Origin: Bacillota bacterium
GTDB taxonomy: Bacteria; Bacillota; Sulfobacillia; JAJZYS01; JAJYTV01
Length of the DNA stretch: 64,000 nt
Reading direction: 5' to 3'
Assembly: GCA_021847575.1 (NCBI GenBank)
Contig: JAJZQO010000003.1
Location: forward strand, 14,411-78,410
The translations under genes and the position numbers were made by a program. Below, one piece after another: positions 175 to 48,667 of the stretch; positions within the stretch are counted from its first letter, which is position 1, and each line of letters opens with the position of its first letter. The notes beneath the pieces were generated by a model. The model was given only the letters and a program-made list of their open reading frames with translations. It ran no database searches and had not been told where the DNA came from.

Positions 175-252
175 AGGAACGGTGGTGGCAGGAGCCTGGG
201 CGCGTGGGAAGAATGAGAGGGGGCGACCTCGGACTGCCCTGAACTGGGAGAG

Positions 253-636
253 ATGCACATGCGTATCCTGCACACGCGCATCCGCGTAAGGGACCTCGAA
301 AGGTCCATCGCCTTCTATCGCGACGTGCTCGGTCTCGAGGAGGCCGGGCGCCAGACGTCCCCACGCGGCAACAAGCTCGCCTTCATGCGGGATGGCGAGT
401 CGGGACACGAGATCGAGCTGTGTCTGCAGCCGGACGCGGGTGATTTCGAGTTCCCCGAGGACATCTTCCACATCGCCCTGGCCGTCCGGGACCTGCGGCA
501 GGTGGGCGAGGAACTGGGCAAGCGCGGCATCCCGTTCACCGACGGGCCGCACTTCAGCGAACGCGGCTCCGCGCTCGCGTTCATCGACGACCCGGACGGC
601 TACGAGATCGAGCTATTGCAGGAGCCGCCGGCCTGA
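253..636 (+). CDS. VOC/glyoxalase I family protein (lactoylglutathione lyase-like)
   Basis: 127 aa. Begins HTRIRVRDLERSIAFYRDVLGL and ends FIDDPDGYEIELLQ, typical of the glyoxalase/bleomycin-resistance fold. Its stop overlaps the next start (TGATG). Confidence 0.8.
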   Translation: MHMRILHTRIRVRDLERSIAFYRDVLGLEEAGRQTSPRGNKLAFMRDGESGHEIELCLQPDAGDFEFPEDIFHIALAVRDLRQVGEELGKRGIPFTDGPHFSERGSALAFIDDPDGYEIELLQEPPA

Positions 637-1412
637 TGACCTTCGAGGACGATTTCTGCGACATCATTCGCAAGGCGCGCTCGGGCCACGGCCTCTCGAT
701 CGAGACCGTCGCCGCGGACGCCGGCATCCCGGCCCTCCGCCTGCAAGCGCTGGAGACGGGTCAGTTGCCCGCCTCGGGCGAGGTCGAGCGCCTGGCGCAG
801 GTGCTCCACCTGCGCCAGGCGCCGCTGCGGGACATCGCCACGGGCCGGGTCGAGCCGCCGTCGGTCACTCCGCCGCGAGCGATGGCCGTGACGAGTGTCT
901 TTGCCGCCGACGTCGGCGCGTTCGCCTATGCCGTGCGGTCCACCTACGGCAGGATCATCGTCGACTGCGGCGGGGGCGTGCCGCAGCTCCTGCGCGCGCT
1001 CGGCGGCGCGGCAGAGGCTGTGCTCCTGACGCATGGCCACTCAGATCACGTCGCTGGTCTTGGCGACATGCCTCAGGGTGTGCCGGTCTTTGCCCACCCT
1101 GAACTCAGCCGGCGGCTCCCCGGAGCCCGTCCGCTCGCGGACGGCGAGACGGTGTTTGGCCTCGCGGCCATGCACGCACCCGGCCACAGCCCCGATATGC
1201 TGGCGTTCCATGCCGACGGCGTCGCGTTCGTCGGCGACACGATCTTCGCCGGTTCCCTCGGACGCGCGAGCTCTTCCGGCGCCTACCAAGACCTGCTCGC
1301 GAGCGCGCGGCGCATTCTCGCGCTGGCGCCCGAGACTGTGGTCTACTGCGGCCACGGCCCAGCCACGACGGTCGCCTGGGAACGCGTGCACAACGCGTTC
1401 CCAGTGGAGTAG
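636..1412 (+). CDS. HTH (XRE-like) domain fused to an MBL-fold metallo-hydrolase (glyoxalase II-like)
   Basis: N-terminal segment IIRKARSGHGLSIETVAADAGIPALRLQALETGQ looks like an HTH. It is followed by the metallo-beta-lactamase motif THGHSDH, then APGHSPD, VGDTIF and CGHGP. Translationally coupled to the upstream glyoxalase I-like gene. Confidence 0.75.
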   Translation: MTFEDDFCDIIRKARSGHGLSIETVAADAGIPALRLQALETGQLPASGEVERLAQVLHLRQAPLRDIATGRVEPPSVTPPRAMAVTSVFAADVGAFAYAVRSTYGRIIVDCGGGVPQLLRALGGAAEAVLLTHGHSDHVAGLGDMPQGVPVFAHPELSRRLPGARPLADGETVFGLAAMHAPGHSPDMLAFHADGVAFVGDTIFAGSLGRASSSGAYQDLLASARRILALAPETVVYCGHGPATTVAWERVHNAFPVE

Positions 1413-1417
1413 CGGCC

Positions 1418-2266
1418 GTGTCGGAGGCGAGGCGCGCCGTTGGCCATGGTCAGATCCGGATCTGGCGCGGTGAAGTTGTGCGGCAGGCCATCGGTCGGTC
1501 GCTGGGACCCGGCGCGATCGTCGCCGGGCGGCCGGGCATGCCGAGCCAGAGCTGGCTTGCGGGTCTGCCGTTCGGTCCGGACCAGTTCTTCCTGGGCAGC
1601 GCGGCCGGAGAGTTGGGCCTCGAGGATCTCCCGGCGCTCCTCGCGGCGCTGCTGCCCGAACTGCCGAGGCACGTACGCCGCGTCTACCATTACGATGCGA
1701 CCTGGCTTGGCGCGGTGGGACGCGCCTACCTGGGCCAGGGCTTCGTGGACTTTGTGCACCGCTACAGCATGCAGCGGCGCCTGCCTGCTCCGCAGGCGCC
1801 GGAGGAACGCCTTGAGCTTGTGCCGCTGGCGCGCGGCAACGAAGGTCTCTTCGCCGACACGTACGCGCGCTGCCTTGTGGATTGCCTCTCGCCGATGTCG
1901 CTCGAGGACACCCAGGACCCAGCCGCCGCGCTCGGCTTCCAGATCGCTCAGGATCACGGGCCGGACGGGCGGCGCTGGTACCTCGGGCTGCGCGCGGACG
2001 GCACCCCGGCAGGCATGGCCCTCCTGGACCGCTACGGCCCGGCTCCGAGCGACTGGGTGGTGAGCTTTCTCGGTACGGTGGCGGATGCGCGTGGCCAGGG
2101 CTACGGCCGCGAGCTGCTGTTGCGCGCAGCGGCGGAAGCCACCAGAGCCGGAGCGCGCAGGCTGCATCTGGCCGTCTGCCACGCGAACGAGCCAGCGCTG
2201 GGGCTCTATCGCAGCGCGGGTTTCCGCGCCGAGGAGACCTACCGGGTGTTCAGACGCGTGCGCTGA
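1418..2266 (+). CDS. GNAT family N-acetyltransferase (C-terminal GNAT domain); start uncertain
   Basis: C-terminal segment ARGQGYGRELLLRAAAEATRAGARRLHLAVCHANEPALGLYRSAGF matches the acetyl-CoA binding region (Q/RxxGxG/A). The N-terminal ~150 aa are unassigned. Confidence 0.6.
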   Translation: MSEARRAVGHGQIRIWRGEVVRQAIGRSLGPGAIVAGRPGMPSQSWLAGLPFGPDQFFLGSAAGELGLEDLPALLAALLPELPRHVRRVYHYDATWLGAVGRAYLGQGFVDFVHRYSMQRRLPAPQAPEERLELVPLARGNEGLFADTYARCLVDCLSPMSLEDTQDPAAALGFQIAQDHGPDGRRWYLGLRADGTPAGMALLDRYGPAPSDWVVSFLGTVADARGQGYGRELLLRAAAEATRAGARRLHLAVCHANEPALGLYRSAGFRAEETYRVFRRVR

Positions 2267-2269
2267 TGT

Positions 2270-2578
2270 TCAGGCGTGGTGCCGATTGACGTATTCCGCC
2301 AGGCTTGCGAGCGAAGTCAGGGCCCCGACCACCATGAACTCGGTCGTTGCGGCGGAGTGATGGAGGAAGGGCATGCCGACAAGCGCCAAGCCGAAAATGC
2401 CCGAGGCGACGAACGGCCAGCGATCGGGTGTGAGGTTCGCCGCAACGCCGGCCAGAACGATGAGGAGGCCGAGCAGCACGGAAATCTGGGCGATGAGCGG
2501 ATCGCTGATATGCAGGGCGTAGCTTGACGAGAGCTGCCACACACCCAGCACGAGGATGAGCCAGCGCCATAGCCGCAT
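2270..2578 (-). CDS. small integral membrane protein (3-4 predicted TM segments)
   Basis: 102 aa. Hydrophobic stretches LILVLGVWQL, ISVLLGLLIVLAGVAA, ASGIFGLALVGMPF and FMVVGALTSLASL. No confident family assignment. Confidence 0.5.
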   Translation of the reverse strand: MRLWRWLILVLGVWQLSSSYALHISDPLIAQISVLLGLLIVLAGVAANLTPDRWPFVASGIFGLALVGMPFLHHSAATTEFMVVGALTSLASLAEYVNRHHA

Positions 2579-2624
2579 CTGACGTTCCTCCTTTCGCCCA
2601 GGGAGAAGCCGGGCTGCCTCTACG

Positions 2625-3284
2625 TTACGCGCCTGCGGGCCGTACGAGTAACCGCATCGCGACCTCGAGGGAGATGCGCAGCTCCCGCTCCCCGATGCGG
2701 CAGGTCAGGCCGTCGGGGGCGTTCGTCAGCACCTGCACCTCCGTGCCGGGCACGAGACCGAGCTGCTGCAGCTGCTGCAGAAACTCGCCGAGCCCTTCCA
2801 CCTGTTCGAAGACGCGGTCGACGACCACCTTCTTGCCGTGGTCGGTATCGGCGAGTGTGGGCAGAGCCACCGTTTCGCTCGGGGCGAGTCCGGGGATCGG
2901 ATTGCCGTGCGGGCATGTCGTCGGCCGGGCGAGGCTCTGCCAGAGGCGTTCCTCGATCAGCGGCGTCAAGGCATGCTCAAGGTGATGGGCCTCCCTGTGG
3001 CACGCGCTCCAGTCGAGACCGAGCACGTCGTAGGCCCAGCGCTCGGCCAGACGGTGTCGTCTGACGACCTTCTCGGCCTCCTGCAGTCCCTTGGGGGTAA
3101 GCCGGATTGCCTTCGCTCCGTCGTCTTCCACGAGTCCGTCCCGCCGCAACCGGCGCATGGCCTGCGTTACGCTGGGAGGCGACACTCCCAGGTACTCGGC
3201 GATGCGGGCGCCGAAGGGGTTGCGGGTCTCCACGGAGAGCACGTAGATGGCTTCGAGGTAGTGTTCCACATTACTGGTAGCCAA
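2625..3284 (-). CDS. DtxR/MntR-family metal-dependent transcriptional regulator with C-terminal FeoA-like domain
   Basis: Contains VEHYLEAIYVL, ARIAEYLGVSPPSVTQAMRRLRRDGLV, RHRLAERW and HALTPLIEERL, plus an SH3/FeoA-like tail. The track ORF (to 3647) is trimmed to TTG at 3284, which is preceded by AGGA. The resulting 219 aa fits the family size. Confidence 0.8.
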   Translation of the reverse strand: MATSNVEHYLEAIYVLSVETRNPFGARIAEYLGVSPPSVTQAMRRLRRDGLVEDDGAKAIRLTPKGLQEAEKVVRRHRLAERWAYDVLGLDWSACHREAHHLEHALTPLIEERLWQSLARPTTCPHGNPIPGLAPSETVALPTLADTDHGKKVVVDRVFEQVEGLGEFLQQLQQLGLVPGTEVQVLTNAPDGLTCRIGERELRISLEVAMRLLVRPAGA

Positions 3285-13943: not shown

Positions 13944-14946
13944 GGCGTACCGACGGTCCGGGGTCGACCTCAGGGCCAAGGAGCAGCTGCTTGGCAGGCT
14001 GAAGGCGATCGGTGTCACGGCGTCCCGGCCTGAGGTGCTGGCCGGCATCGGCGGGTTCGGCGGCCTGTTCCGGCTGCAGGGCTACAAGGATCCGGTGCTG
14101 GTGGCGGGCGCGGACGGTGTCGGCACGAAGCTGATGCTGGCGCAGAGCCTGGGCGACCTGACGAAGGTCGGTCAGGATGTTTTGGCGATGGTCGCGAACG
14201 ACGTGCTCTGCCAGGGCGCCGAGATGCTTTTCTTCCTCGATTACATAGGTGTCGGCCACCTCGACCCCGCGCAGGTGGCGGAGGTGGTGGCGGGCGTCGG
14301 CAGGGCGTGCAGGGCCATCGGCTGCGCCTTGCTCGGCGGTGAGACCGCGGAGCTGCCTGAGCTCTTTCCCGCCGGCGGACTCGACCTCGTCGGCTTCGGT
14401 GTCGGCGCCGCAGAGCGCGACCGGGTGCTGACGGGGGAGGCGGCAAGGGCGGGCGACATCCTGATCGGCCTGCCGTCCGACGGTGTGCACAGCAACGGTT
14501 TCAGCCTCGTGCGGCGCATCGTGCAGGAGCGCTCCCTCGACCTCACCGCCGCCTATGACCTTGAGGCGCCGCTCGGCGAAGTGCTCTTGCGGCCGACCCA
14601 TCTCTACGGTCCCGAGGTTCTGCCTGCCCTCGAACTGGGCGGTGTGCACGGTATCAGCCACATCACGGGCGGCGGCATTCCCGGCAATGTGCCGCGCATG
14701 CTCGGTCAGGGCCTGATGGCTCGCTTCGACCGGAGCACCTGGCAAGTGCCGCCAGAGCTCGAGCTGATCCTCAGGCAGGGGGACGTGCCCCGCGGGGAGG
14801 CGTTCGAGGTTTTCAACATGGGCCTGGGTCTTGTGCTCGCCGTGGATCCCGCCGAGGCCCAGCGCGTGCTTGATGATGTCGCGGCAGCCGGCGGCCGGCC
14901 GCGGGTGGTTGGAGAGGTGGCCCCGGGGGAGGGTGTCGACCTTTGA
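13936..14946 (+). CDS. purM: AIR synthetase
   Basis: Contains YRRSGVDL, GIGGFGGLF, DGVGTKL and GGETAE. The start was chosen at ATG 13936, which overlaps the purF end. Confidence 0.95.
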   Translation: MSEAYRRSGVDLRAKEQLLGRLKAIGVTASRPEVLAGIGGFGGLFRLQGYKDPVLVAGADGVGTKLMLAQSLGDLTKVGQDVLAMVANDVLCQGAEMLFFLDYIGVGHLDPAQVAEVVAGVGRACRAIGCALLGGETAELPELFPAGGLDLVGFGVGAAERDRVLTGEAARAGDILIGLPSDGVHSNGFSLVRRIVQERSLDLTAAYDLEAPLGEVLLRPTHLYGPEVLPALELGGVHGISHITGGGIPGNVPRMLGQGLMARFDRSTWQVPPELELILRQGDVPRGEAFEVFNMGLGLVLAVDPAEAQRVLDDVAAAGGRPRVVGEVAPGEGVDL

Positions 14947-23970: not shown

Positions 23971-24330
23971 TCAGGAGGGATCCCGCGTCAGATCGCGGTA
24001 GATCCCCGCGCCGTAACCTGGCATCAGCCGGTCTGGCAGCCAGAGCAAGGGGCGGCGCAGCGACAGCGGGTCCTTGAGAAGCCGGTCCAGCACCTCGCCT
24101 TCCGCAAGGGAGACGAGGTCGACGCCCTGCGCCCGCCAGTGCTGGCCGCGCAGCGCTACGAGATCTCGCACCCCCCCGGGCAGCAGCTTGGCCATTTCAA
24201 CGAGTTCGGTGCGATCGGGCGCCTCTTTCGGGAGACGTCGTTCCGTTACCGGGAAGCCTATCTGCGAGAGCTCCGCCCTCGCCTTGCGGCAGGACGTTCA
24301 GCCTGGGTACCAGAAGAAGACTGCAGGCAA
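23971..24330 (-). CDS. ArsC/Spx/YffB-family thiol oxidoreductase-like protein with in-frame TGA at codon 11 (candidate selenoprotein, alternatively a nonsense pseudogene)
   Basis: TTG start at 24330, 8 nt after SD GGAGGTG. Translation: M-PAVFFWYPG-[TGA 24298-24300]-TSCRKARAELSQIGFPVTERRLPKEAPDRTELVEMAKLLPGG...LLKDPLSLRRPLLWLPDRLMPGY. The TGA sits where Spx has the first Cys of CTSCRKA. The track shows only the 74-aa tail (23971..24195). Confidence 0.6.
24264..24282 (-). other. SECIS-like hairpin downstream of the in-frame UGA
   Basis: The mRNA reads GCGAGGG-CGGAG-CUCUCGC: a 7-bp stem including one G.U pair and a 5-nt apical loop with G at positions 2-3. The stem starts 15 nt after the UGA. 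Confidence 0.3.
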
Positions 24331-24411
24331 AACTTTCGCACCTCCACGAGCCAAGTCTATCATGGAGGCCAGGTGCGCAGAGGCGACAAGTGACGACAGG
24401 AGGCCGACCCT

Positions 24412-26301: not shown

Positions 26302-26850
26302 ATGCACCTGATCCGCCATGCGCAGCCGGAGATCGAGCCGGATGTGCCGCCGGAAAGCTGGCGACTCGCGCCGGAGGGTCAGCGCGATGCTCTTCGTCTC
26401 GCGGACAACTTGAGGCGCAACGCTCCAGCCCGGATCTGGAGCAGTCGCGAACCCAAGGCTATGGAAACGGCCCGGATCCTCGGGAGAGCTCTGGCATGTC
26501 CCATCGCCATGCACGACGGACTGAGCGAGGTGACGTTCGCGGCGGGATTTCTGACCCAGGCGGAGTTCGGCAGGCGTGTCGCATCGTTCCTCGAGGGCGA
26601 GGCCGATCCCGCGTTCGAGCCGTACGAAGAGGCACGGCGGCGCATCGTCGGGACGCTCGCGGAGGTTTGCCGGTACGAAGCCGGGGACATCGCTGTCGTC
26701 TCGCATGGGCGGATCCTGACGGTTCTACTCGCGGAGCTGCTGGGTCGCAGACTGGGTGCGAGCGCCTGGCGCAGGATCCCCATGCCGGGGTGGACGCTCA
26801 TCGATCTCGAGCACGGCACCGCGCTCGCCGGCTTCGCGCGGCAGTTCTAG
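26302..26850 (+). CDS. histidine phosphatase (phosphoglycerate mutase-like) family protein
   Basis: Begins MHLIRHAQPE (RHG-type motif) and contains VVSHGRIL. The start is uncertain; the track ORF begins at 26071. Confidence 0.7.
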   Translation: MHLIRHAQPEIEPDVPPESWRLAPEGQRDALRLADNLRRNAPARIWSSREPKAMETARILGRALACPIAMHDGLSEVTFAAGFLTQAEFGRRVASFLEGEADPAFEPYEEARRRIVGTLAEVCRYEAGDIAVVSHGRILTVLLAELLGRRLGASAWRRIPMPGWTLIDLEHGTALAGFARQF

Positions 26851-27737
26851 GGGCGGACCGCCTTCTTGGCGTCAGCCCGCAGGCGTTCGAGCTGTGCCTG
26901 GCCATAGCGGTAGGTCCGCCCGCAGAAGTGGCAGCGCAGTTCCGCGCTGCCGTCGTCGATCAGTTCCCCCAGTGCCTCGGGACCGAGCAAAAGCAGTGAG
27001 CGGCTTGCGCGTCCCCGTGAGCAGGTGCAGCGCAGGCTCAGGGGATCGGGCGGGGCGACGCGCACATCGGAAAAGCCTTGGAGCAGGTCATGGAGAAGCC
27101 CGTCCGATCCGGCAACGTGCACGGCCCTTGACGAGATGGGGCCCAGCGCCTCCACGCGCTCCGCGAGCTCCTGCGCAAATTCCTCGCCGCCGGGCAGCAC
27201 CTGCAGCAACAGCCCGCCTGCCGATTGGACGGTGCCGGTACGCCTGAGCAGAACGCCGAGAGCAACGGCGGACGGGACCTGCTCCGAGGTCAGAAGGTAG
27301 CTCGCGATGTCGTCGCCGATCTCGCCGCTGACGAGGGGCGCTGTCGTGGTGTAGGGCTGCGCGTCGCCCATGCTTCGGCTCAAGACGATGTTGCCCTGTC
27401 CGACGGCGCGCCCGACGTCAAGCTTGCCGTTGGCCTTGATCGGCAGCGCGACGTGCGGATTCTGGACATAGCCGCGGACTCCGCCTTCGGCGTCGGCATC
27501 GGCGATCACCGCGCCGATGGGGCCGTCGCCTAGCAGGCGCAGCGTCAGACGGTCCGGCGCCTTGAGAGAGGCTGCCGCCAAGAGGGCGGCGCCCATCATG
27601 GCACGGCCCAGAGCCGCGGTGGCGACGGGAAACGTGCCGTGCCGACGCCGAGCCGACTCGACAAGCGCCGTGCCGACCACGGCGATGGCCCGGATGCGGC
27701 CGCCCTCGGCCGTTGCGCGCGCAAGGGTATCCTTCAT
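26847..27737 (-). CDS. hslO: Hsp33 redox-regulated chaperone
   Basis: ATG 27737 follows AAGGAGG. The C-terminal zinc centre reads CTCS...CHFCG, and the family core (GRAMMGAALL, VPSAVALGV) is present. Confidence 0.9.
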   Translation of the reverse strand: MKDTLARATAEGGRIRAIAVVGTALVESARRRHGTFPVATAALGRAMMGAALLAAASLKAPDRLTLRLLGDGPIGAVIADADAEGGVRGYVQNPHVALPIKANGKLDVGRAVGQGNIVLSRSMGDAQPYTTTAPLVSGEIGDDIASYLLTSEQVPSAVALGVLLRRTGTVQSAGGLLLQVLPGGEEFAQELAERVEALGPISSRAVHVAGSDGLLHDLLQGFSDVRVAPPDPLSLRCTCSRGRASRSLLLLGPEALGELIDDGSAELRCHFCGRTYRYGQAQLERLRADAKKAVRP

Positions 27738-27959
27738 CTCGGGCCTCCTTTGTACAGAGTTCGGCCGGGTGCCATAGGACGATGGGTTCAATCGTAGCAC
27801 CACCGGATGAAGCCCTGCACCCTTTACGCGCCGAGACGCCTCCAGCATGATATGGACGGGAGCTTCGAAGGCCGGTGCCGGCGGCGTCGCTTCCGCCGCC
27901 GGACCATCGCGGAGGGAGGGTGACCGCCTGCCCCGGGGCGCTGGCCGCGGCCGGACGGG

Positions 27960-28553
27960 GTGAGTCAGACCATACACAGCTACGGCATCGGTTATCCTCT
28001 GCTCTACTTCTTTCTCCTGATCGAATCCGTAGGCATTCCTTCTCCCAGCGAAGCCTCGCTGATTTACGCAGGCGTGCTGGCGGCGCAGGGCAAGCTGTCC
28101 TTTCCTCTCGTCGTCGTTGTCGGAGCACTCGGCTCTCTCACGGGGGCGAACATCGCCTACTGGGTCGCCCGCCGCGGTGGACGCGTGCTTATCGTGCGCT
28201 ATGGCATGCGCGTTGGCCTGACCGAGGCGCGACTCGAGCAGGCCGAGGCGTTTTTCCGCCGGCGCGGGGATATCGCGCTCCTGATCGGGCGCCTCATCTC
28301 CGGCGTGCGCGCGCTGATCTCATACCCGGCGGGTCTTTTCGAAATGCCGTATCCGCGCTTCCTCGCCTTCACGGCAATAGGTGCCATGATTTGGCCGCTC
28401 ATCGCGGCGGGCGCCGGTTTTCTCGTCGGACCGCACTGGCATGTGCTGCTCACGTGGCTGGGACGACTATGGATCGGCGTCATCGTTGCGCTCGTGGCCG
28501 CCGTTGTCGGCTGGGTCTACTGGCGGCGACGCGGCAGGAGGCCGCAGGTGTAG
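27960..28553 (+). CDS. DedA/SNARE-associated family membrane protein
   Basis: Contains FFLLIESVGIPSPSE, GANIAYWVARRGG and LIGRLISGVRALISYPAG. Confidence 0.85.
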   Translation: MSQTIHSYGIGYPLLYFFLLIESVGIPSPSEASLIYAGVLAAQGKLSFPLVVVVGALGSLTGANIAYWVARRGGRVLIVRYGMRVGLTEARLEQAEAFFRRRGDIALLIGRLISGVRALISYPAGLFEMPYPRFLAFTAIGAMIWPLIAAGAGFLVGPHWHVLLTWLGRLWIGVIVALVAAVVGWVYWRRRGRRPQV

Positions 28554-28640
28554 GCGCACGCCCTTTCTTCAGCCGTGGTGTCGTGCTACTCTCCAAACGG
28601 ATCAGTTGCCCCGTTTGCTGGCGGGGCCACATCTGGACAT

Positions 28641-28733
28641 GCGGGTCGCCGGTGGCGACCCAGGGCGGAGTACGCGGGTCGCCGGTGGCGACCCAGGGCG
28701 GAGTACGCGGGTCGCCGGTGGCGACCCAGGAGG
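28641..28733. repeat. three tandem 33-bp units, each carrying the palindrome GGGTCGCC-GGT-GGCGACCC
   Basis: Units at 28641-28673 and 28674-28706 are identical. The third (28707-) is identical for 24 nt. The palindromes lie at 28643-28661, 28676-28694 and 28709-28727. The last one abuts the lpd SD AGGAGGG (28728-28734). Confidence 0.95.
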
Positions 28734-28741
28734 GACGCAGG

Positions 28742-30160
28742 TTGGCGGAGGAAAAGATCGACGTACTATTCCTCGGCGGCGGTACCGGCGGCTATGAGGC
28801 GGCTATCCGGGCCGCGCAGTCGGGTCTCAAGGCCGCCGTGGTGGAGAAGGAAAAGGTGGGCGGCGTCTGCCTGCACAAGGGTTGTATTCCGTCCAAGGCG
28901 CTCTTGCGCACGGCAGAACTCATGGCGACCATCCGCGAGGCGTCGGACTTCGGCCTTGCGGTCGAGGCGCCGAAGCTCGACTTCCATCAGGCGCAGACGC
29001 GCAAGCAGAAGGTCGTGGACCAGCTTTACAAGGGCGTGCAGGGGCTTCTGAAGCGTGCGAACGTCACGATCTACGAGGGCGTCGGCACGTTGATGCCGCC
29101 TTCGATCTTTGCCCCGGCCGGCTCCGTGTCGGTCGAGAAGGCGAACGGAGAGCGCGAGCTCCTTTCCCCCGACCACATCGTCATCGCCACGGGATCTTCC
29201 GCCAGGGAGTTGCCGGGTCTGCCGTTCGACGGCGACCGCGTCATCTCAAGCGACCACGCCCTCGAACTCCAGGAGATTCCGCAGTCCGTCATCATCGTCG
29301 GCGCGGGAGCGATCGGCTGCGAGTGGGCATCGCTCTTCTCGGACCTGGGCGGTCAGGTCAAGCTTGTCGAGGCCCTGCCGCGTCTGCTGCCGCTTGAGGA
29401 CAAGGACATGTCGGACCAACTGCAGCGCATCTTCACGCGGCGCGGCATCGAATGCTATCCCGGCCACAGCGTCGACGTGCAGAGCTACCGCCCGACGGAC
29501 GACGGCGCCGAGATCACTATCGAGGGGCCCTCTGGCAAGAAGACCTTGAGCGCACAGAAGATCCTGGTCGCGATCGGCAGGAAGCCGAACAGCGACGGAA
29601 TCGGTCTCGAGAACTTCGACAAGGTCAAGCTGGAGCGAGGCTATATTCAGGTCGATGCAGAGATGCGCACGGGCGACCCGCGCATCTTCGCGATCGGCGA
29701 TGTCATCGGCCGGTTGCAGCTGGCGCACGTCGCGGTGCACGAGGGGCTGATCGCGGTCGACGCGATCCTGGGCAAGAAGCCCGAGACGATCGACTACGTC
29801 AAGGTGCCGCGCTGCACCTACAGCCGGCCGGAGGTGGCGTCTGTGGGCCTCGACGAGCAGGCCGCGCGCGACCAGGGTCACGAGGTGAAGGTCGGAAAGT
29901 ACTTCTTCAAGGCGAACGGCAAGGCGCTCATCTACGGCGAGTCCGATGGGCTCTGCAAGGTCGTCTCGGACGCTGCGACGGGAGATCTTCTCGGCCTGCA
30001 CCTGATCGGTCCGCATGCCACGGACCTGGTGGCCGAGGGTACGCTCGCGCTCCAGTTCGACGGGTCGCTTTTCGACCTGCAGGAAGTTGTCCACGCACAC
30101 CCGACGCTATACGAGATCATCAACGACGCCGCGCTGGCTGCCGACGGCAAGATGGCCTGA
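28742..30160 (+). CDS. lpd: dihydrolipoyl dehydrogenase (E3)
   Basis: Contains VLFLGGGTGGYEAAIRAAQSGL, GGVCLHKGCIPSK (redox disulfide), a second GxGxxG (IIVGAGAIGCE) and HAHPTL. TTG 28742 lies 7 nt after AGGAGGG. Confidence 0.9.
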   Translation: MAEEKIDVLFLGGGTGGYEAAIRAAQSGLKAAVVEKEKVGGVCLHKGCIPSKALLRTAELMATIREASDFGLAVEAPKLDFHQAQTRKQKVVDQLYKGVQGLLKRANVTIYEGVGTLMPPSIFAPAGSVSVEKANGERELLSPDHIVIATGSSARELPGLPFDGDRVISSDHALELQEIPQSVIIVGAGAIGCEWASLFSDLGGQVKLVEALPRLLPLEDKDMSDQLQRIFTRRGIECYPGHSVDVQSYRPTDDGAEITIEGPSGKKTLSAQKILVAIGRKPNSDGIGLENFDKVKLERGYIQVDAEMRTGDPRIFAIGDVIGRLQLAHVAVHEGLIAVDAILGKKPETIDYVKVPRCTYSRPEVASVGLDEQAARDQGHEVKVGKYFFKANGKALIYGESDGLCKVVSDAATGDLLGLHLIGPHATDLVAEGTLALQFDGSLFDLQEVVHAHPTLYEIINDAALAADGKMA

Positions 30161-34976: not shown

Positions 34977-36431
34977 TCAGGTGGAGCGTGCCGGGGCGGC
35001 CTTGCCGCGCAGGGCCGACAGCACCGCAGCGACGAGCGACAGGATGGTCGACAGGGTAAACGCCTCGCCAAGGCCATGGGAAAATGCTGCGGAGCCCTTC
35101 GCAGCCCCATTTGCAGACATACCTGCGAGGAAGCCGGAAAGGTGGCCACCGCCCATCGTGGTGGACAGGATGGTGAAGGAGAGGGCGAGCGAGAAAAGCT
35201 GCCCCGCGTTGAACAGCAGGGTACGGGTACTGGCCGCGACGCCTCGGCGGTCCGGGGGCACGGCGCCCATTACGGCGCTTGTGTTCGGCGAATTGAAAAG
35301 ACCGTTGCCGATACCGGCGAGCAGCAGTGCGCAGGCGATGGGCAGGTAGGGGCCCGCCAAAGGAATGCGGGCGAGCATGGCGAGCGCGACGGCTGTCACG
35401 AGCAACCCGCCCGAGGACAGTTCGCGCGAGCCGAGCCGGTCCGAGAGGCGGCCCGAGATCGGCCCGACGACCATCATGGAGATGGTCAGGGGCAGCATCA
35501 GCAGGCCCGCGGTCAGAGGCGAGGCCCCGCGGAGCCCCTGGAAAGAGAATGTCATGAGAAACATGAGGGCGCCGCGTGCGAGCGCGTTCAAAAACAGAGA
35601 GGCGTTGCCGAAGGTGAAGATGCGCAGGGCGAACAACCGCAGGTCTATGAGCGGACTTCGCGCCCGGCGCTCGTAGAGGACGAAGGTCACAAGCGCCAGG
35701 CCACCCGCCGCGAGCAACCAGGGCACCGCCGGTCCCCCACCCTCGATGACGAAAGTCAGGCCGAGCAGCACGAGAAGGAGGCCTCCGACGAAGAACACCA
35801 TGCCGTAGGTGTCGAATGGCTCCCCCATATCGATCGAGGCGATCTCGTGCAGGGATGTGAAGGTCCAGATGGCGCCAAAGGCACCGATCGGCAGGTTGAC
35901 GAAGAAGATCCAGCGCCAGCCGAGAGCTGCTGTGATGAGGCCGCCCAGGAGCTACCCGCCTACGCTGCCGCTCAGTGCCGAGACCTGATTGATGCCCAGG
36001 GCGAATCCTCGGCCCTTGTCCGGGAACGCGTCTGTCAGGATCGCCATGGAGTTGGACCAGAGCAGGGCGGCTCCAACCCCTTGGATCAGCCGGCTGACAA
36101 GTAGGAAGACACCGTCCGTGGCGAAGCCGCAGAGTCCGGATGCCGCCGTGAAGACGATAAAGCCGATGCCGTACAGGCGGACGCGACCGTGCGTATCAGC
36201 GAGTCGCCCGAACGGCAGGAGCAGAGCGGTGATCACGACCGTATAGCCCATCATGATCCAGAGCATGAGACCTACGCCCGTATGCAGTTCGCGGGCGATG
36301 GTCGGCAAGCTTACGGTGAGGATCGACCCGTCAAGAGAAGCCATGAGTGAGCCGATCGTCGTGTTGATGAGCACAGTCTTCTGATGGCGCGCCTGCGCCG
36401 ATACGGCAGAGAAGGAACTGTTTTGGCGCAA
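34977..36431 (-). pseudogene. MFS (DHA2/EmrB-QacA-like, 14-TM) transporter interrupted by one in-frame TAG
   Basis: Track ORFs 35952..36659 (N-terminal half, LDGSILTVSLPTIAREL ... ALSGSVGG*) and 34977..35828 (C-terminal half) are in the same frame. The codons between them read LLGGLITAALGWRWIFFVNLPIGAFG, the conserved motif after TM6. TAG lies at 35952-35954. The likely start is TTG 36431, after GGGAGG. Confidence 0.7.
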
Positions 36432-36874
36432 GAGGCCGCCTCCCAAGATTCCTACCCAATCCAACTTATCGGAACGGGCCGCAATCTCCTGCCTGCCTTT
36501 CCGGGGGAGTACCGCAGCCAGCGACCGTCCTTCCGGTCCGCCGACCGACTCGACGAAGGTCAAGCGAAGCGCCATGGTGCTATGGCAGTTGGTCGATGGT
36601 CGCAACCGACCACAACAACGGACACCCGTGGCCGCGATGGCGCTGGCGGGGAGAACCATGGGACGCTCCCTCGGTCAGCCCACGTACCCCGGCATGCCGA
36701 GCCGATCACGCCTGACCGGGGAGCTCCTCATCGCCTTGGCACAGCCGCCTGTGCCGCCGTCGAAGTGCGACCCGATGCGAGGTCTCGAATCCGGATGCTC
36801 CAGCGCCACGCGAAGGGGCGTACAGGGGCGCCGTGAGCACCCTGCACGCCCCTTCGCGGCGAGACTTGGCGGGG

Positions 36875-41111: not shown

Positions 41112-42914
41112 TTACTCCACCGTTACGGACTTGGCGAGATTCCGCGGCTGATCGATGGGGCAGCCTCGCGCCTCCGCCACATCGACGGCGAGCAACTGCA
41201 GTGGCAGGGCCCCAAGCAGGTAGGCCCCGATACGCTCCTTCAGCGGCAGCGAAAGCTGAAGCGTTGCGCCCAGTTCGCTGCCTATCGCCACCCCGTAAGC
41301 ACCGCGAGCGGTCGCTTCGGCGAGTGAACTCCGAAGCTTTACGGCATGCCGCGGGTCCGTCGCGCAAACGATTACCGGCACACGCTGGTCAACGAGGGCC
41401 AGGGGCCCATGCTTCAATTCTCCCGCGGCGAATGCCTCGCTCCACACGTAGGAAAGCTCCTTGAGCTTCAGCGATCCTTCGCGCGCCAGACTGAGATCCT
41501 GGCCGCGCCCGAGGAAAATTACTCCCGGTGCGGCTGCGCAGGCGTCGATGAGGTCCTTCGGCAGTCTGAGCGCCGACAGGAAGTCTTCAGCCACCGTTGG
41601 TACGGCTCTCAGGGCTTGCAGATCGGCAGGGGGCAGCGGGCGCTGTCTTGCCTGGGCAAAAGCAGCGGTAAGCAGTTCCAGTGCGATCACCTGCGTGGTG
41701 AAGGCCTTGGTGGAAGCGACGGAGATCTCGAACCCTGCTCTGAGGTCGAAGACGTAGTCGCTCTCGCGCGCGATGGTCGACCCGGGCGCGTTGACTAGCG
41801 CGAGGACGTTCGCGCCCAGTTGTCTCGCATGACGCAGCGCGGCAAGGGTGTCGATGGTTTCGCCGGATTGGCTCACGGCAACGGCCAGCGTGCCCGGCTC
41901 GAGAAAGTTGCGGGTGTCGCGGAATTCACTCGCGAGTTCCGCCTGCGCGGGCAACGCCACGACGTCGGCAAGCCGCTCAACCGCCATCTGGCAGGCGTGC
42001 AGCGAAGAACCCATCGCGAGAAAGACAACGCGCTGCACCGCTCGCAGCAGATTTTCTTCGATCCCGTCCTGGCTCAGGTCGACTTGCCCCAATTCGTCAA
42101 GTCGTCCAGCCATTACGCGGCGCCAGGCGATAGGCTGCTCCATGAGTTCCTTGCGGTAGAACGTGCCGTGTTCGCCTGCGTCGGGCATTGCGCCGTCTCC
42201 CTCGATGGGATGCAGCGTCTTGGCGATGGGCTGCAGGTCTTCGAGCCGGAAGACCTCGATCTTGCCCGGACGGATGTCCGCGATCTCGCCGTCGTCGAGA
42301 TAGATGCACTCGCCGAGCCATGGCGCCAAGGCGATGGCTCCGGAGGCCACAAAGGCTTCGCTCTCCGTTGCGCCGATCGCGATCGGACTGGTGCGACGCA
42401 CCGCCACGAGACGATCGGGCTGGTGGACGTCCATCACCAGCAGCGCGTAGGCACCCTCGCAGCGCCGTGCGACGTCGCTCAACCGTGCCCGCAGGTCGCC
42501 TTTGCCATGCTCGAGCATATGGGCGACGAGCTCGGAATCGGTCTCGGAGCGCAGAATGTGGCCCTGGGACAGGAGTTCCAGCCGCAGGTCGTCCGCGTTT
42601 TCAATGATGCCGTTGTGCACGATGGCGATCTCGCCACTGCAGTCCGTGTGGGGATGCGCATTGTGGTCCGAGACGCCGCCGTGCGTCGCCCAGCGCGTAT
42701 GGCCGATACCCATGTGGCTCACGGGCGGCGGCGACTTCGCGAGCGCCTCCTCGAGAACGCGCAACGCGCCGGCCTTCCGCTGCAAGAAGATGGAACCGTC
42801 ATCAGCAAGTGCGATGCCCGCGGAGTCATAGCCGCGGTACTCGAGGCGCTTGAGTCCCCCGAGCAGTACCTCCGCCGCCGGTTTGGGCCCCACGTAGCCC
42901 ATGATCCCGCACAT
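41112..42914 (-). CDS. glmS: glutamine--fructose-6-phosphate aminotransferase
   Basis: Begins MCGIMGYVG (Cys nucleophile directly after Met), has two SIS domains, and ends with the tail AKSVTVE. Confidence 0.95.
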   Translation of the reverse strand: MCGIMGYVGPKPAAEVLLGGLKRLEYRGYDSAGIALADDGSIFLQRKAGALRVLEEALAKSPPPVSHMGIGHTRWATHGGVSDHNAHPHTDCSGEIAIVHNGIIENADDLRLELLSQGHILRSETDSELVAHMLEHGKGDLRARLSDVARRCEGAYALLVMDVHQPDRLVAVRRTSPIAIGATESEAFVASGAIALAPWLGECIYLDDGEIADIRPGKIEVFRLEDLQPIAKTLHPIEGDGAMPDAGEHGTFYRKELMEQPIAWRRVMAGRLDELGQVDLSQDGIEENLLRAVQRVVFLAMGSSLHACQMAVERLADVVALPAQAELASEFRDTRNFLEPGTLAVAVSQSGETIDTLAALRHARQLGANVLALVNAPGSTIARESDYVFDLRAGFEISVASTKAFTTQVIALELLTAAFAQARQRPLPPADLQALRAVPTVAEDFLSALRLPKDLIDACAAAPGVIFLGRGQDLSLAREGSLKLKELSYVWSEAFAAGELKHGPLALVDQRVPVIVCATDPRHAVKLRSSLAEATARGAYGVAIGSELGATLQLSLPLKERIGAYLLGALPLQLLAVDVAEARGCPIDQPRNLAKSVTVE

Positions 42915-42959
42915 AGACAAAAACACACCCCTTCATGCAGGTTGACGCGAAGCACGCGT

Positions 42960-43140
42960 GCAGGCCATGCAGAAAGAGGGGTGCGCTCATCGCGACCCTC
43001 ACCTGCCGACCCTTTTCCCCCAAGGGATCGCTCCCTGGCTTTGTGAGGTCTTTGACGGTCCAGGCGAACCGGGGGTCACCCGCCGAAAATTCCGAGATCC
43101 CCCACCTCGTCCACTCGCCTTGCGACGAGTGCTGGCGCTT
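42960..43140 (-). ncRNA. glmS ribozyme (GlcN6P-responsive self-cleaving leader)
   Basis: The minus strand reads A-AGCGCCAG-CACUCGUCGCAAGGCGAGUG-GACGAGG-UGGGGGAUCUCGGAAUUUUCGGCGGGUGACCCCCGG.... This matches the conserved core blocks AGCGCC, GACGAGG, UUUUCGGCGG and CCCGG, directly upstream of glmS. The 3' boundary is approximate. Confidence 0.85.
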
Positions 43141-43299
43141 GTATATTGTGCATGGCGATGCGTTGCGATGAGTCGCGCACGCTCACTGGACCGAGTGTCG
43201 CACGCGAGGGGTCGCCGCGCAAGTGCCGGTCGCTGGCTCGTGTGCTATACTGTACGCACTCGGATCGCGGAAGTGCCGCGGCCAAAGGGGCGAAAGCGC

Positions 43300-48571: not shown

Positions 48572-48667
48572 GGGAACAGACGGCCTGCTGGTGCAGCCCC
48601 TGGACTTCAAATCCAGCCGGCGGGCTTTACGGTCCGCGGTGGGTTCGATTCCCACCTGCTCCCGCCA
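48572..48667 (+). tRNA. selC: tRNA-Sec (anticodon UCA)
   Basis: 96 nt. The anticodon arm CUGGA-CUUCAAA-UCCAG is identical to that of E. coli selC. The acceptor stem has 8 bp (GGGAACAG/CUGCUCCC, with one A.C mismatch) and the T stem has 5 bp (GUGGG/CCCAC, loop UUCGAUU). There is a long variable arm (GCGGGC...GGUCCGC), a G discriminator base and an encoded CCA. Confidence 0.85.

Follow-up and report, generated by a model that had tools for sequence, protein, structure and literature searches.

ArsC-like selenoproteins were reported in 2006 (PMC1794560), and the Global Ocean Sampling (GOS) selenoproteome described by Zhang and Gladyshev in 2008 included a family from marine metagenomes named "Arsenate reductase 2", which was assigned to cd03032 and carried a UxxC motif, with U denoting selenocysteine (Sec) (PMC2398784). 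An "arsenate reductase-like protein, UxxC" (NF041106) and a UxxS-type ArsC appear in reviews published in 2022 and 2026 (PMC9312934, PMC13188914). The Spx family, in turn, is marked by the signatures CXXC, G52, and RPI (PMC8501982). In this study, we analyzed a gene related to these families in a 64,000-nucleotide stretch of DNA (hereafter, the window; all positions are those of the window unless a contig is named) from a Bacillota bacterium, corresponding to positions 14,411 to 78,410 of the forward strand of contig JAJZQO010000003.1 in assembly GCA_021847575.1. The gene lies on the minus strand, from 24330 to 23971, and is interrupted by one in-frame TGA. Comparative sequence analysis led us to predict, with a probability of about 0.86, that it is a genuine selenoprotein gene with Sec at codon 11 of a 119-residue protein with the ArsC/Spx-type thioredoxin fold.

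A sequence-only reading of the window had proposed that this UGA is recoded as Sec at the first position of a CxxC motif. The proposal is supported by the conservation of the TGA, the start codon, and the Shine-Dalgarno (SD) sequence, by homologues with Cys at this position, by a covarying hairpin of the bacterial Sec insertion sequence (bSECIS) type, and by a tRNA-Sec gene.

Reading frame and conservation of the in-frame TGA

The frame comprises 119 sense codons followed by a stop codon, and translation revealed a single in-frame TGA, which is codon 11. The deduced peptide reads M/L-PAVFFWYPG-(TGA)-TSCRKARAEL...LLKDPLSLRRPLL. When Cys was placed at the stop, residues 6-111 matched the Pfam ArsC family (PF03960) with 41.5 bits against a gathering score of 24, in agreement with the earlier statement that the TGA is the sole defect of an ArsC/Spx-like frame. 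The coordinates given at that time for the frame, the TGA, the SD sequence, the TTG start codon, and the hairpin all matched the sequence when they were rechecked. The public record for the gene consists only of an unnamed fragment of 74 amino acids.

DNA of the orthologous loci was collected from nine Bacillota/Clostridia metagenome-assembled genomes (MAGs) and several metagenome contigs (L001-L016), and 13 distinct sequences with protein identities of 61-95% were obtained. The sequence-only reading had asked whether the orthologues carry TGA or TGC at this codon. All 13 sequences have TGA at the same codon, within the context FFWYPG-TGA-T[ST]CR, and neither TGC nor TGT was found at codon 11 in any of them. 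The codons for FFWYPG differ among the orthologues at third positions alone (TAC/TAT; CCA/G/T/C), and purifying selection acts on the gene on both sides of the TGA. Gene order is also kept at the orthologous loci, with trpS located divergently about 80 nt upstream and the genes for a DUF1805 protein and a class IV aminotransferase located downstream. The immediate family is tiny: an exhaustive search yielded two representatives below 1e-10 among 1.8 billion entries.

Translation would begin at the TTG that follows GGAGGTG. In all 13 sequences, GGAGGTG is followed by TTG or GTG 6-8 nt on, and the SD sequence is unchanged even in a clade with a different upstream leader. A 2-nt indel separates the SD-to-start spacing of the relatives from that of the window gene in the orthologue alignment, and the leader is therefore non-coding. 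An ATG at 24361-24363 (minus strand) is located in frame 11 codons 5′ of the TTG, and initiation there would yield a protein of 130 residues. This ATG was discarded as the start codon, because no SD sequence precedes it and the 2-nt leader indel puts it in another frame in most orthologues.

A pseudogene, in which a single TGC/TGT-to-TGA nonsense mutation inactivated an ArsC/Spx-like gene, would also have a frame that is intact but for one stop and would fit the public call of a 74-amino-acid fragment. Such a mutation is, however, an extremely improbable explanation for a TGA that is shared by 13 orthologous sequences down to 61% identity and by five clades at approximately 29-41% identity (described below). 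Purifying selection on both sides of the stop, the conserved start codon and SD sequence, and the lack of TGC or TGT among the 13 orthologues also argue against it. Recent mobile pseudogene copies are unlikely because chromosomal synteny (trpS, DUF1805, and class IV aminotransferase) is conserved.

The 14 close homologues in the protein database are all N-terminally truncated calls of 69-101 amino acids. If the TGA were a true stop, the locus would encode a 10-residue leader peptide followed by a re-initiated protein in which the first strand is missing along with the first redox residue, and the products of 69-101 amino acids obtained from the downstream starts of the gene callers would be consistent with such an arrangement. 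However, these starts are at differing sites among the orthologues, indicating that no alternative start is conserved. Furthermore, the codons before the TGA are conserved as a coding β-strand that matches β1 of Spx, and without β1 and the UxxC residue U/C, a product would have neither the thioredoxin-fold core nor the active site. Re-initiation is very unlikely in view of these observations, and the truncated calls are what gene callers yield at a conserved in-frame stop.

The hairpin downstream of the TGA and the selenocysteine tRNA

In the bSECIS model, the hairpin has a loop of 3-9 nt, a stem of 4-16 bp, and G in the first two loop positions, and the distance from the UGA to the loop is 16-37 nt with a minimum free energy (MFE) of −7.5 kcal/mol or lower (PMC13188914). 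In the window gene, a spacer of 15 nt (24283-24297) separates the TGA from a predicted hairpin composed of GCGAGGG (24282-24276), CGGAG (24275-24271), and CTCTCGC (24270-24264), which gives a 7-bp stem, GCGAGGG/CUCUCGC, with the loop C-GGA-G. The loop is located 22-23 nt after the UGA and has G within its first two positions, and the MFE of the hairpin alone is −11.9 kcal/mol. The published ranges, against which the sequence-only reading had recommended checking this hairpin, accommodate all 13 orthologous sequences. Their stems are 7-8 bp long, their loops are (C/U)GGA(G/U), their spacings are 22-23 nt, and their hairpin-only MFE values range from −9.8 to −12.8 kcal/mol.

Synonymous sites in this region are unusually constrained. 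Of the third positions in the 39 nt after the TGA, 11 of 13 are invariant, compared with 22 of 91 elsewhere in the gene (Fisher p=4e-5), and within the lineage there is no variation over the 41 nt that extend from GGC-TGA through the 3′ arm. Among the orthologues, the spacer between the UGA and the stem is variable in sequence and fixed in length. The 5′ arm needs Arg18 to be encoded by AGG, and AGG or AGA is retained in all orthologues; AGR codons make up 14% of the Arg codons in the window and 1 of 14 in the selenoprotein gene. The change from AGG to AGA, which is found in two lineages, converts a G·U pair to an A-U pair.

The weaker database matches were a mixture of full-length and truncated proteins. 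DNA was fetched for five truncated weak matches (P0022 and P0024-P0027) with identities of approximately 29-41%. In each of the five, an in-frame TGA occupies the same U-x-x-C site and follows an in-frame hydrophobic strand. The full-length distant homologues P0015, P0020, P0021, P0023, and P0030-P0032 have Cys at the site, in the contexts CTSC, CTSS, CTTA, and CGTC. These sequences are evidence that several other Spx/MgsR-like clades carry a predicted Sec at the same site.

A hairpin loop is located 22-23 nt past the UGA in all five distant clades. The hairpins of L156 (GGGAGGG/CUCUCCC), L157 (GGGAAGG/CUUUCCC), and L158 (GCGAGGGG-GUU-CCUCUCGC) were aligned to the window hairpin without gaps, and L159 and L155 have unrelated stems with the loops AGUU and GUG, respectively, at the same distance from the UGA. 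When the window lineage was aligned with L156-L158, three of the eight stem pairs showed changes on both arms with pairing preserved. In this cross-clade stem alignment, 98.8% of the pairing cells were paired versus 34-68% with the partner slid, and the covariation score was 0.247 versus 0.121±0.033 in shuffles, a value attained by none of the 500 shuffles. Covariation of the hairpin, which had been named earlier as a point to be checked, was found in this manner one level beyond the close orthologues.

The tRNA-Sec gene that the sequence-only reading had noticed was called at the same position by both ARAGORN and Rfam. An exact-pattern scan detected a matching tRNA-Sec in seven of the nine MAGs that bear the UxxC gene. 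In these relatives, selC is always located in the order groEL-moeA-tatC-selC-DUF502-mrp, which is syntenic with the window, and no sel genes were detected in these tRNA-Sec neighbourhoods. The tRNA-Sec of the relatives was called intact by ARAGORN except where a contig end cuts it. Across genomes, 93-96 of the 96 nt are identical, compared with 60-90% identity for the flanking proteins, indicating strong purifying selection on selC. Of the 18 confident genes in the window, 8 end with TGA, the selenoprotein gene included, which excludes genome-wide reassignment of this codon. Other candidates with in-frame TGA in the window were rejected as selenoproteins; they were junctions of adjacent genes.

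Taken together with established bacterial Sec biology, these features suggest the following course of decoding. The hairpin 15 nt past the UGA would work as a bacterial SECIS whose apical loop, (Y)GGA(K), is 22-23 nt away from the UGA, and it would recruit SelB-GTP with Sec-tRNA(Sec) derived from selC (48572-48667). Sec would then be inserted at codon 11 in place of termination. Sec11 would be the attacking residue at the N-terminus of helix α1, and Sec11 and Cys14 may cycle between the selenol/thiol and the selenenylsulfide forms.

Several results qualify this interpretation. No selA, selB, or selD was detected in the 64-kb window, in which essentially all large open reading frames (ORFs) were compared with NCBIfam and Pfam, or within 10 kb beyond either window end; only about 84 kb of a multi-megabase genome was read, so that this negative does not speak for absence of the genes from the genome. 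Contig and protein searches with the SelA of another high-GC Bacillota MAG (L021), whose reach is limited, found no SelA tied to the window lineage. The SelA candidates were narrowed by a high-GC-like amino-acid composition, and the two that were looked up were not tied to this lineage. In addition, no double compensatory change in the stem was found within the lineage, in which six of the seven pairs never vary, and the fold energy of the region was unexceptional relative to shuffles (z=−1.26). The absence of a covariation signal within the lineage is due to the almost invariant stem, and the significance of the hairpin is based on conservation and covariation, not on stability.

Weak sub-threshold matches of PurL and PurM to SelD were rejected, since these proteins share only the AIR-synthase fold. 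In L021, a groundwater MAG, a compact selC-selA-selD cluster was observed at 244-3222. The selD ORF in this cluster is preceded by an in-frame TGA (...SFASKAG-TGA-AAKLGPEDL), and the SelD there is a predicted selenoprotein.

Downstream structures can generally stimulate read-through. The UGA of the window gene might be read without Sec, either through near-cognate insertion of Trp, Cys, or Arg or through insertion of Cys via tRNA-Sec under selenium limitation, with the conserved hairpin as a generic stimulator. The failure to locate the Sec machinery proteins in the approximately 84 kb that was read would be consistent with this explanation. However, the codon is located exactly at the redox Cys position, which is a classic site of Sec/Cys exchange, and the SelB-type bSECIS geometry (G in the loop and a spacing of 22-23 nt) is found in six independent clades. 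The strongly conserved tRNA-Sec co-occurs with the gene, and next to the relative in L158 lies a peroxiredoxin gene that is itself interrupted in frame by a TGA at its active site. We consider read-through without Sec to be unlikely on these grounds and Sec insertion to be the better explanation.

Relationship to Spx and probable cellular role

When the family profile was compared with all PDB sequences, the six top matches were Spx regulators (E=4e-16 to 8e-14). They were followed by uncharacterized ArsC-like proteins, and true arsenate reductases appeared only at E of about 1e-3. The alignment with Bacillus subtilis Spx was gapless over 110 residues with 27% identity; U11 and C14 fell on Cys10 and Cys13 of the redox switch, respectively, and the residues before the TGA fell on strand β1. 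The Spx signatures are present and invariant in the family as U11-x-x-C14, G53, and R93-P94-L/I95. The residues of Spx that contact DNA (T11, S12, R14, R60, R91, and R92) are conserved, and K62 is replaced by Q or R. On the surface that contacts the RNA polymerase α subunit at its C-terminal domain (α-CTD), G52, V71, M74, and L79 are kept or conservatively replaced. The model cd03032, mentioned above for the GOS family, is presumably the Spx subfamily model of CDD.

The glutaredoxin-dependent arsenate reductase of the R773 type (TIGR00014) was rejected as an identity of the protein, which scored 24.2 bits versus 106. In the comparison with enzymatic ArsC, the identity was 21%, the alignment stopped before R107, and R60 was unaligned in the gapless alignment. 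The ars genes arsR, arsB, and acr3 were not found among the neighbours (trpS, DUF1805, and class IV aminotransferase). The window protein and two orthologues scored 20.1, 28.7, and 24.2 bits with the seleno-ArsC model NF041106, respectively, compared with a cut-off of 85, and they do not belong to this family.

The surroundings of the distant Sec-containing genes were also inspected. Directly downstream of the ArsC/Spx-like gene in L158, a peroxiredoxin gene (AhpC-TSA; 714-1175, plus strand) was observed. It was called in two pieces, between which an in-frame TGA stands at the peroxidatic site (FYPFDWSPG-TGA-TKEMPALE). The arrangement suggests that two adjacent predicted selenoproteins form a redox couple. 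L156 (1043-3306) and L157 (62-2584) have a common gene order of DUF2203, the U-x-x-C ArsC-like gene, a HAD hydrolase, and a Pyr_redox_2 protein of approximately 312 residues, the size of thioredoxin reductase, which hints at a reductase partner for that clade. In L155 (419-1818), the truncated call of the Spx/MgsR-like gene with the motif U-M-T-C already scored 76.3 bits on TIGR01617. The gene is divergent from the genes for Se_S_carrier (PF11823) and TusA/DsrE, a context of selenium/sulfur trafficking. As weak hints, the gene contexts of the distant clades lean to a role as a redox carrier or reductase.

The protein may instead be a true Spx-type regulator and not an enzyme, with its binding of promoter DNA and of the RNA polymerase α-CTD governed by a selenenylsulfide switch. 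The top PDB and NCBIfam matches, which are all Spx, the gapless 110-residue alignment, the three signatures, and the retained DNA contacts point in this direction. The window contains no rpoA. On the other hand, several features argue against membership in the Spx family. Of the α-CTD contacts, L46 is A, L76 is E/D, and Y80 is L/M in this family, K62 is not retained, and the protein ends at residue 113-119 compared with 131 in Spx, so that a C-terminal tail of approximately 15 residues is missing. TIGR01617 (Spx/MgsR) is the best-scoring family, yet the window protein and two orthologues reached 53.8, 70.4, and 56.3 bits, respectively, against its cut-off of 75.05. The Spx signature is poorly discriminating because enzymatic ArsC shares R60, R94-P95, and a nearby Gly. 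The distant Sec-containing relatives neighbour TrxB-like and Sec-peroxiredoxin genes. To our knowledge, Sec is otherwise found almost only in catalytic redox sites. A regulator of the Spx type is a doubtful assignment on balance, and the protein would more probably function as a thiol/selenol-disulfide oxidoreductase or redox carrier. The more specific idea that it represents the first Sec-based transcriptional redox switch of the Spx type, namely an RNA polymerase-binding regulator that senses oxidants via a Sec11-Cys14 selenenylsulfide, is more tentative still.

Gene neighbourhood and comparison with described systems

The positions of the features of the selenoprotein locus and of the tRNA-Sec gene are collected in Table 1.

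Table 1. Features of the predicted selenoprotein locus and the tRNA-Sec gene in the window
Feature	Position	Strand	Basis
UxxC ArsC/Spx-fold selenoprotein coding sequence (predicted)	23971..24330	-	Translation, Pfam ArsC, Spx alignment, 13 orthologous loci
Terminal TGA stop of the selenoprotein gene	23973-23971	-	
In-frame TGA, predicted Sec codon, residue 11, first position of U-T-S-C	24298..24300	-	Conservation, Spx Cys10 alignment
TGC codon, Cys14, resolving cysteine of UxxC	24289..24291	-	Invariant alignment column; aligns with Spx Cys13
Predicted bacterial SECIS hairpin	24264..24282	-	bSECIS criteria, synonymous-site freezing, cross-clade compensation
Start codon TTG (GTG in L006 and L012)	24328..24330	-	Position kept 6-8 nt 3′ of the SD sequence in all orthologues
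Shine-Dalgarno sequence GGAGGTG	24339..24345	-	8 nt before TTG; invariant in every orthologue
Conserved intergenic motif CATGATAGACT	24354..24364	-	Orthologue alignments; conserved in most orthologues
tRNA-Sec (selC), anticodon TCA	48572..48667	+	ARAGORN; Rfam RF01852, 68.7 bits versus a gathering score of 47

The intergenic region (24331-24411) leaves approximately 80 nt between the selenoprotein gene and trpS, which start divergently, and there is no room for a T-box leader. Judging from its sequence, the conserved motif in this region may be an extended −10 element of the selenoprotein gene (TGnTAGACT, minus strand) that overlaps a −10-like TATCAT of the divergent trpS (plus strand). A promoter-like site on the plus strand, TTCGCA-17-TATCAT, was found at 24335-24363.

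At a distance of 2.5-4 kb from the selenoprotein gene, the genes for the redox-regulated chaperone Hsp33 and dihydrolipoyl dehydrogenase were observed at 26847-28319 (minus strand) and 27851-30160 (plus strand), and the position of Hsp33 is retained in at least one orthologous locus (L006). A gene for a transporter of the major facilitator superfamily (MFS), DHA2/EmrB family (34977-36674, minus strand), is split by one in-frame TAG at 35952-35954 (...SGSVGG-TAG-LLGGLITAALGWRWIFF), and its halves match positions 4-134 and 145-409 of the TIGR00711 profile. The split probably reflects a nonsense mutation, a pseudogene, or a sequencing error; the split is unrelated to Sec because the stop is TAG and not TGA. 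A glmS ribozyme (RF00234, 73.4 bits; 42997-43150, minus strand) is located upstream of glmS (41112-42932, minus strand), as is ordinary for Bacillota.

The significance of the gene lies in the following points. Its closest characterized relative is a transcription regulator and not an enzyme, and it offers a test case for Sec in a redox sensor; it also bears on what Sec offers over Cys in a CxxC switch. If the tentative Sec-Spx switch were true, the high-GC Bacillota lineage would possess a faster or lower-potential stress sensor, and a global stress regulon would be tied to selenium availability because the regulator would not be made without Sec insertion. At least five further Spx/MgsR-like clades are truncated at the same UxxC site, and a dedicated model would fix the whole set of mis-called genes. 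As a method, a bacterial SECIS can be validated by combining synonymous-site freezing within a lineage with covariation among distant paralogous clades that contain Sec, which is useful where close orthologues alone show no covariation. The current understanding is not overturned, as thioredoxin-fold proteins with a UxxC motif, ArsC-like members among them, make up the commonest bacterial selenoprotein type.

The predicted hairpin resembles the bSECIS consensus, with fdhF of Escherichia coli as the archetype, in that it is located in the coding sequence right after the UGA and has an upper stem of 7-8 bp and a small loop with G-[G/U]. It differs from the fdhF element in its unrelated sequence and in the GGA loop in a C-G (or U·G, or U/U) closing context, and binding of SelB would follow by analogy. 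The protein, for its part, resembles Spx, which in Bacillota is an RNA polymerase-binding regulator with a CxxC redox switch (PDB 1Z3E, 3L78, 7F75; PMC8501982, PMC2801614), in that C10/C13 correspond to U11/C14 and that G52, R60, R91-R92-P93, and G104-Y105 are conserved. Unlike Spx, it has a predicted Sec in place of Cys10, no C-terminal tail, and several altered α-CTD contacts, and binding to RNA polymerase would be by analogy only.

Among the described selenoproteins, the GOS "Arsenate reductase 2" shares with the window gene the thioredoxin fold of the ArsC superfamily, Sec as the first residue of UxxC, and the existence of Cys homologues. The window clade, in contrast, is very small and comes from high-GC (approximately 67%) Bacillota MAGs, and the comparison is made with GOS sequences known by description only. 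The curated family NF041106 "ArsC family (seleno)protein" (ArsC_rel_Se_1) also allows Sec and has the UxxC motif (PMC13188914). In contrast to its members, the window protein and its orthologues remain at 20-29 bits against the cut-off of 85, so that pipelines relying on NF041106 would miss the gene, which fits the public call of 74 amino acids. UxxC ArsC/Spx-like selenoproteins are an established kind that has been listed since 2008; the window gene adds a new and distinct orthologous group that is confined to a lineage of high-GC Bacillota and escapes the current curated models.

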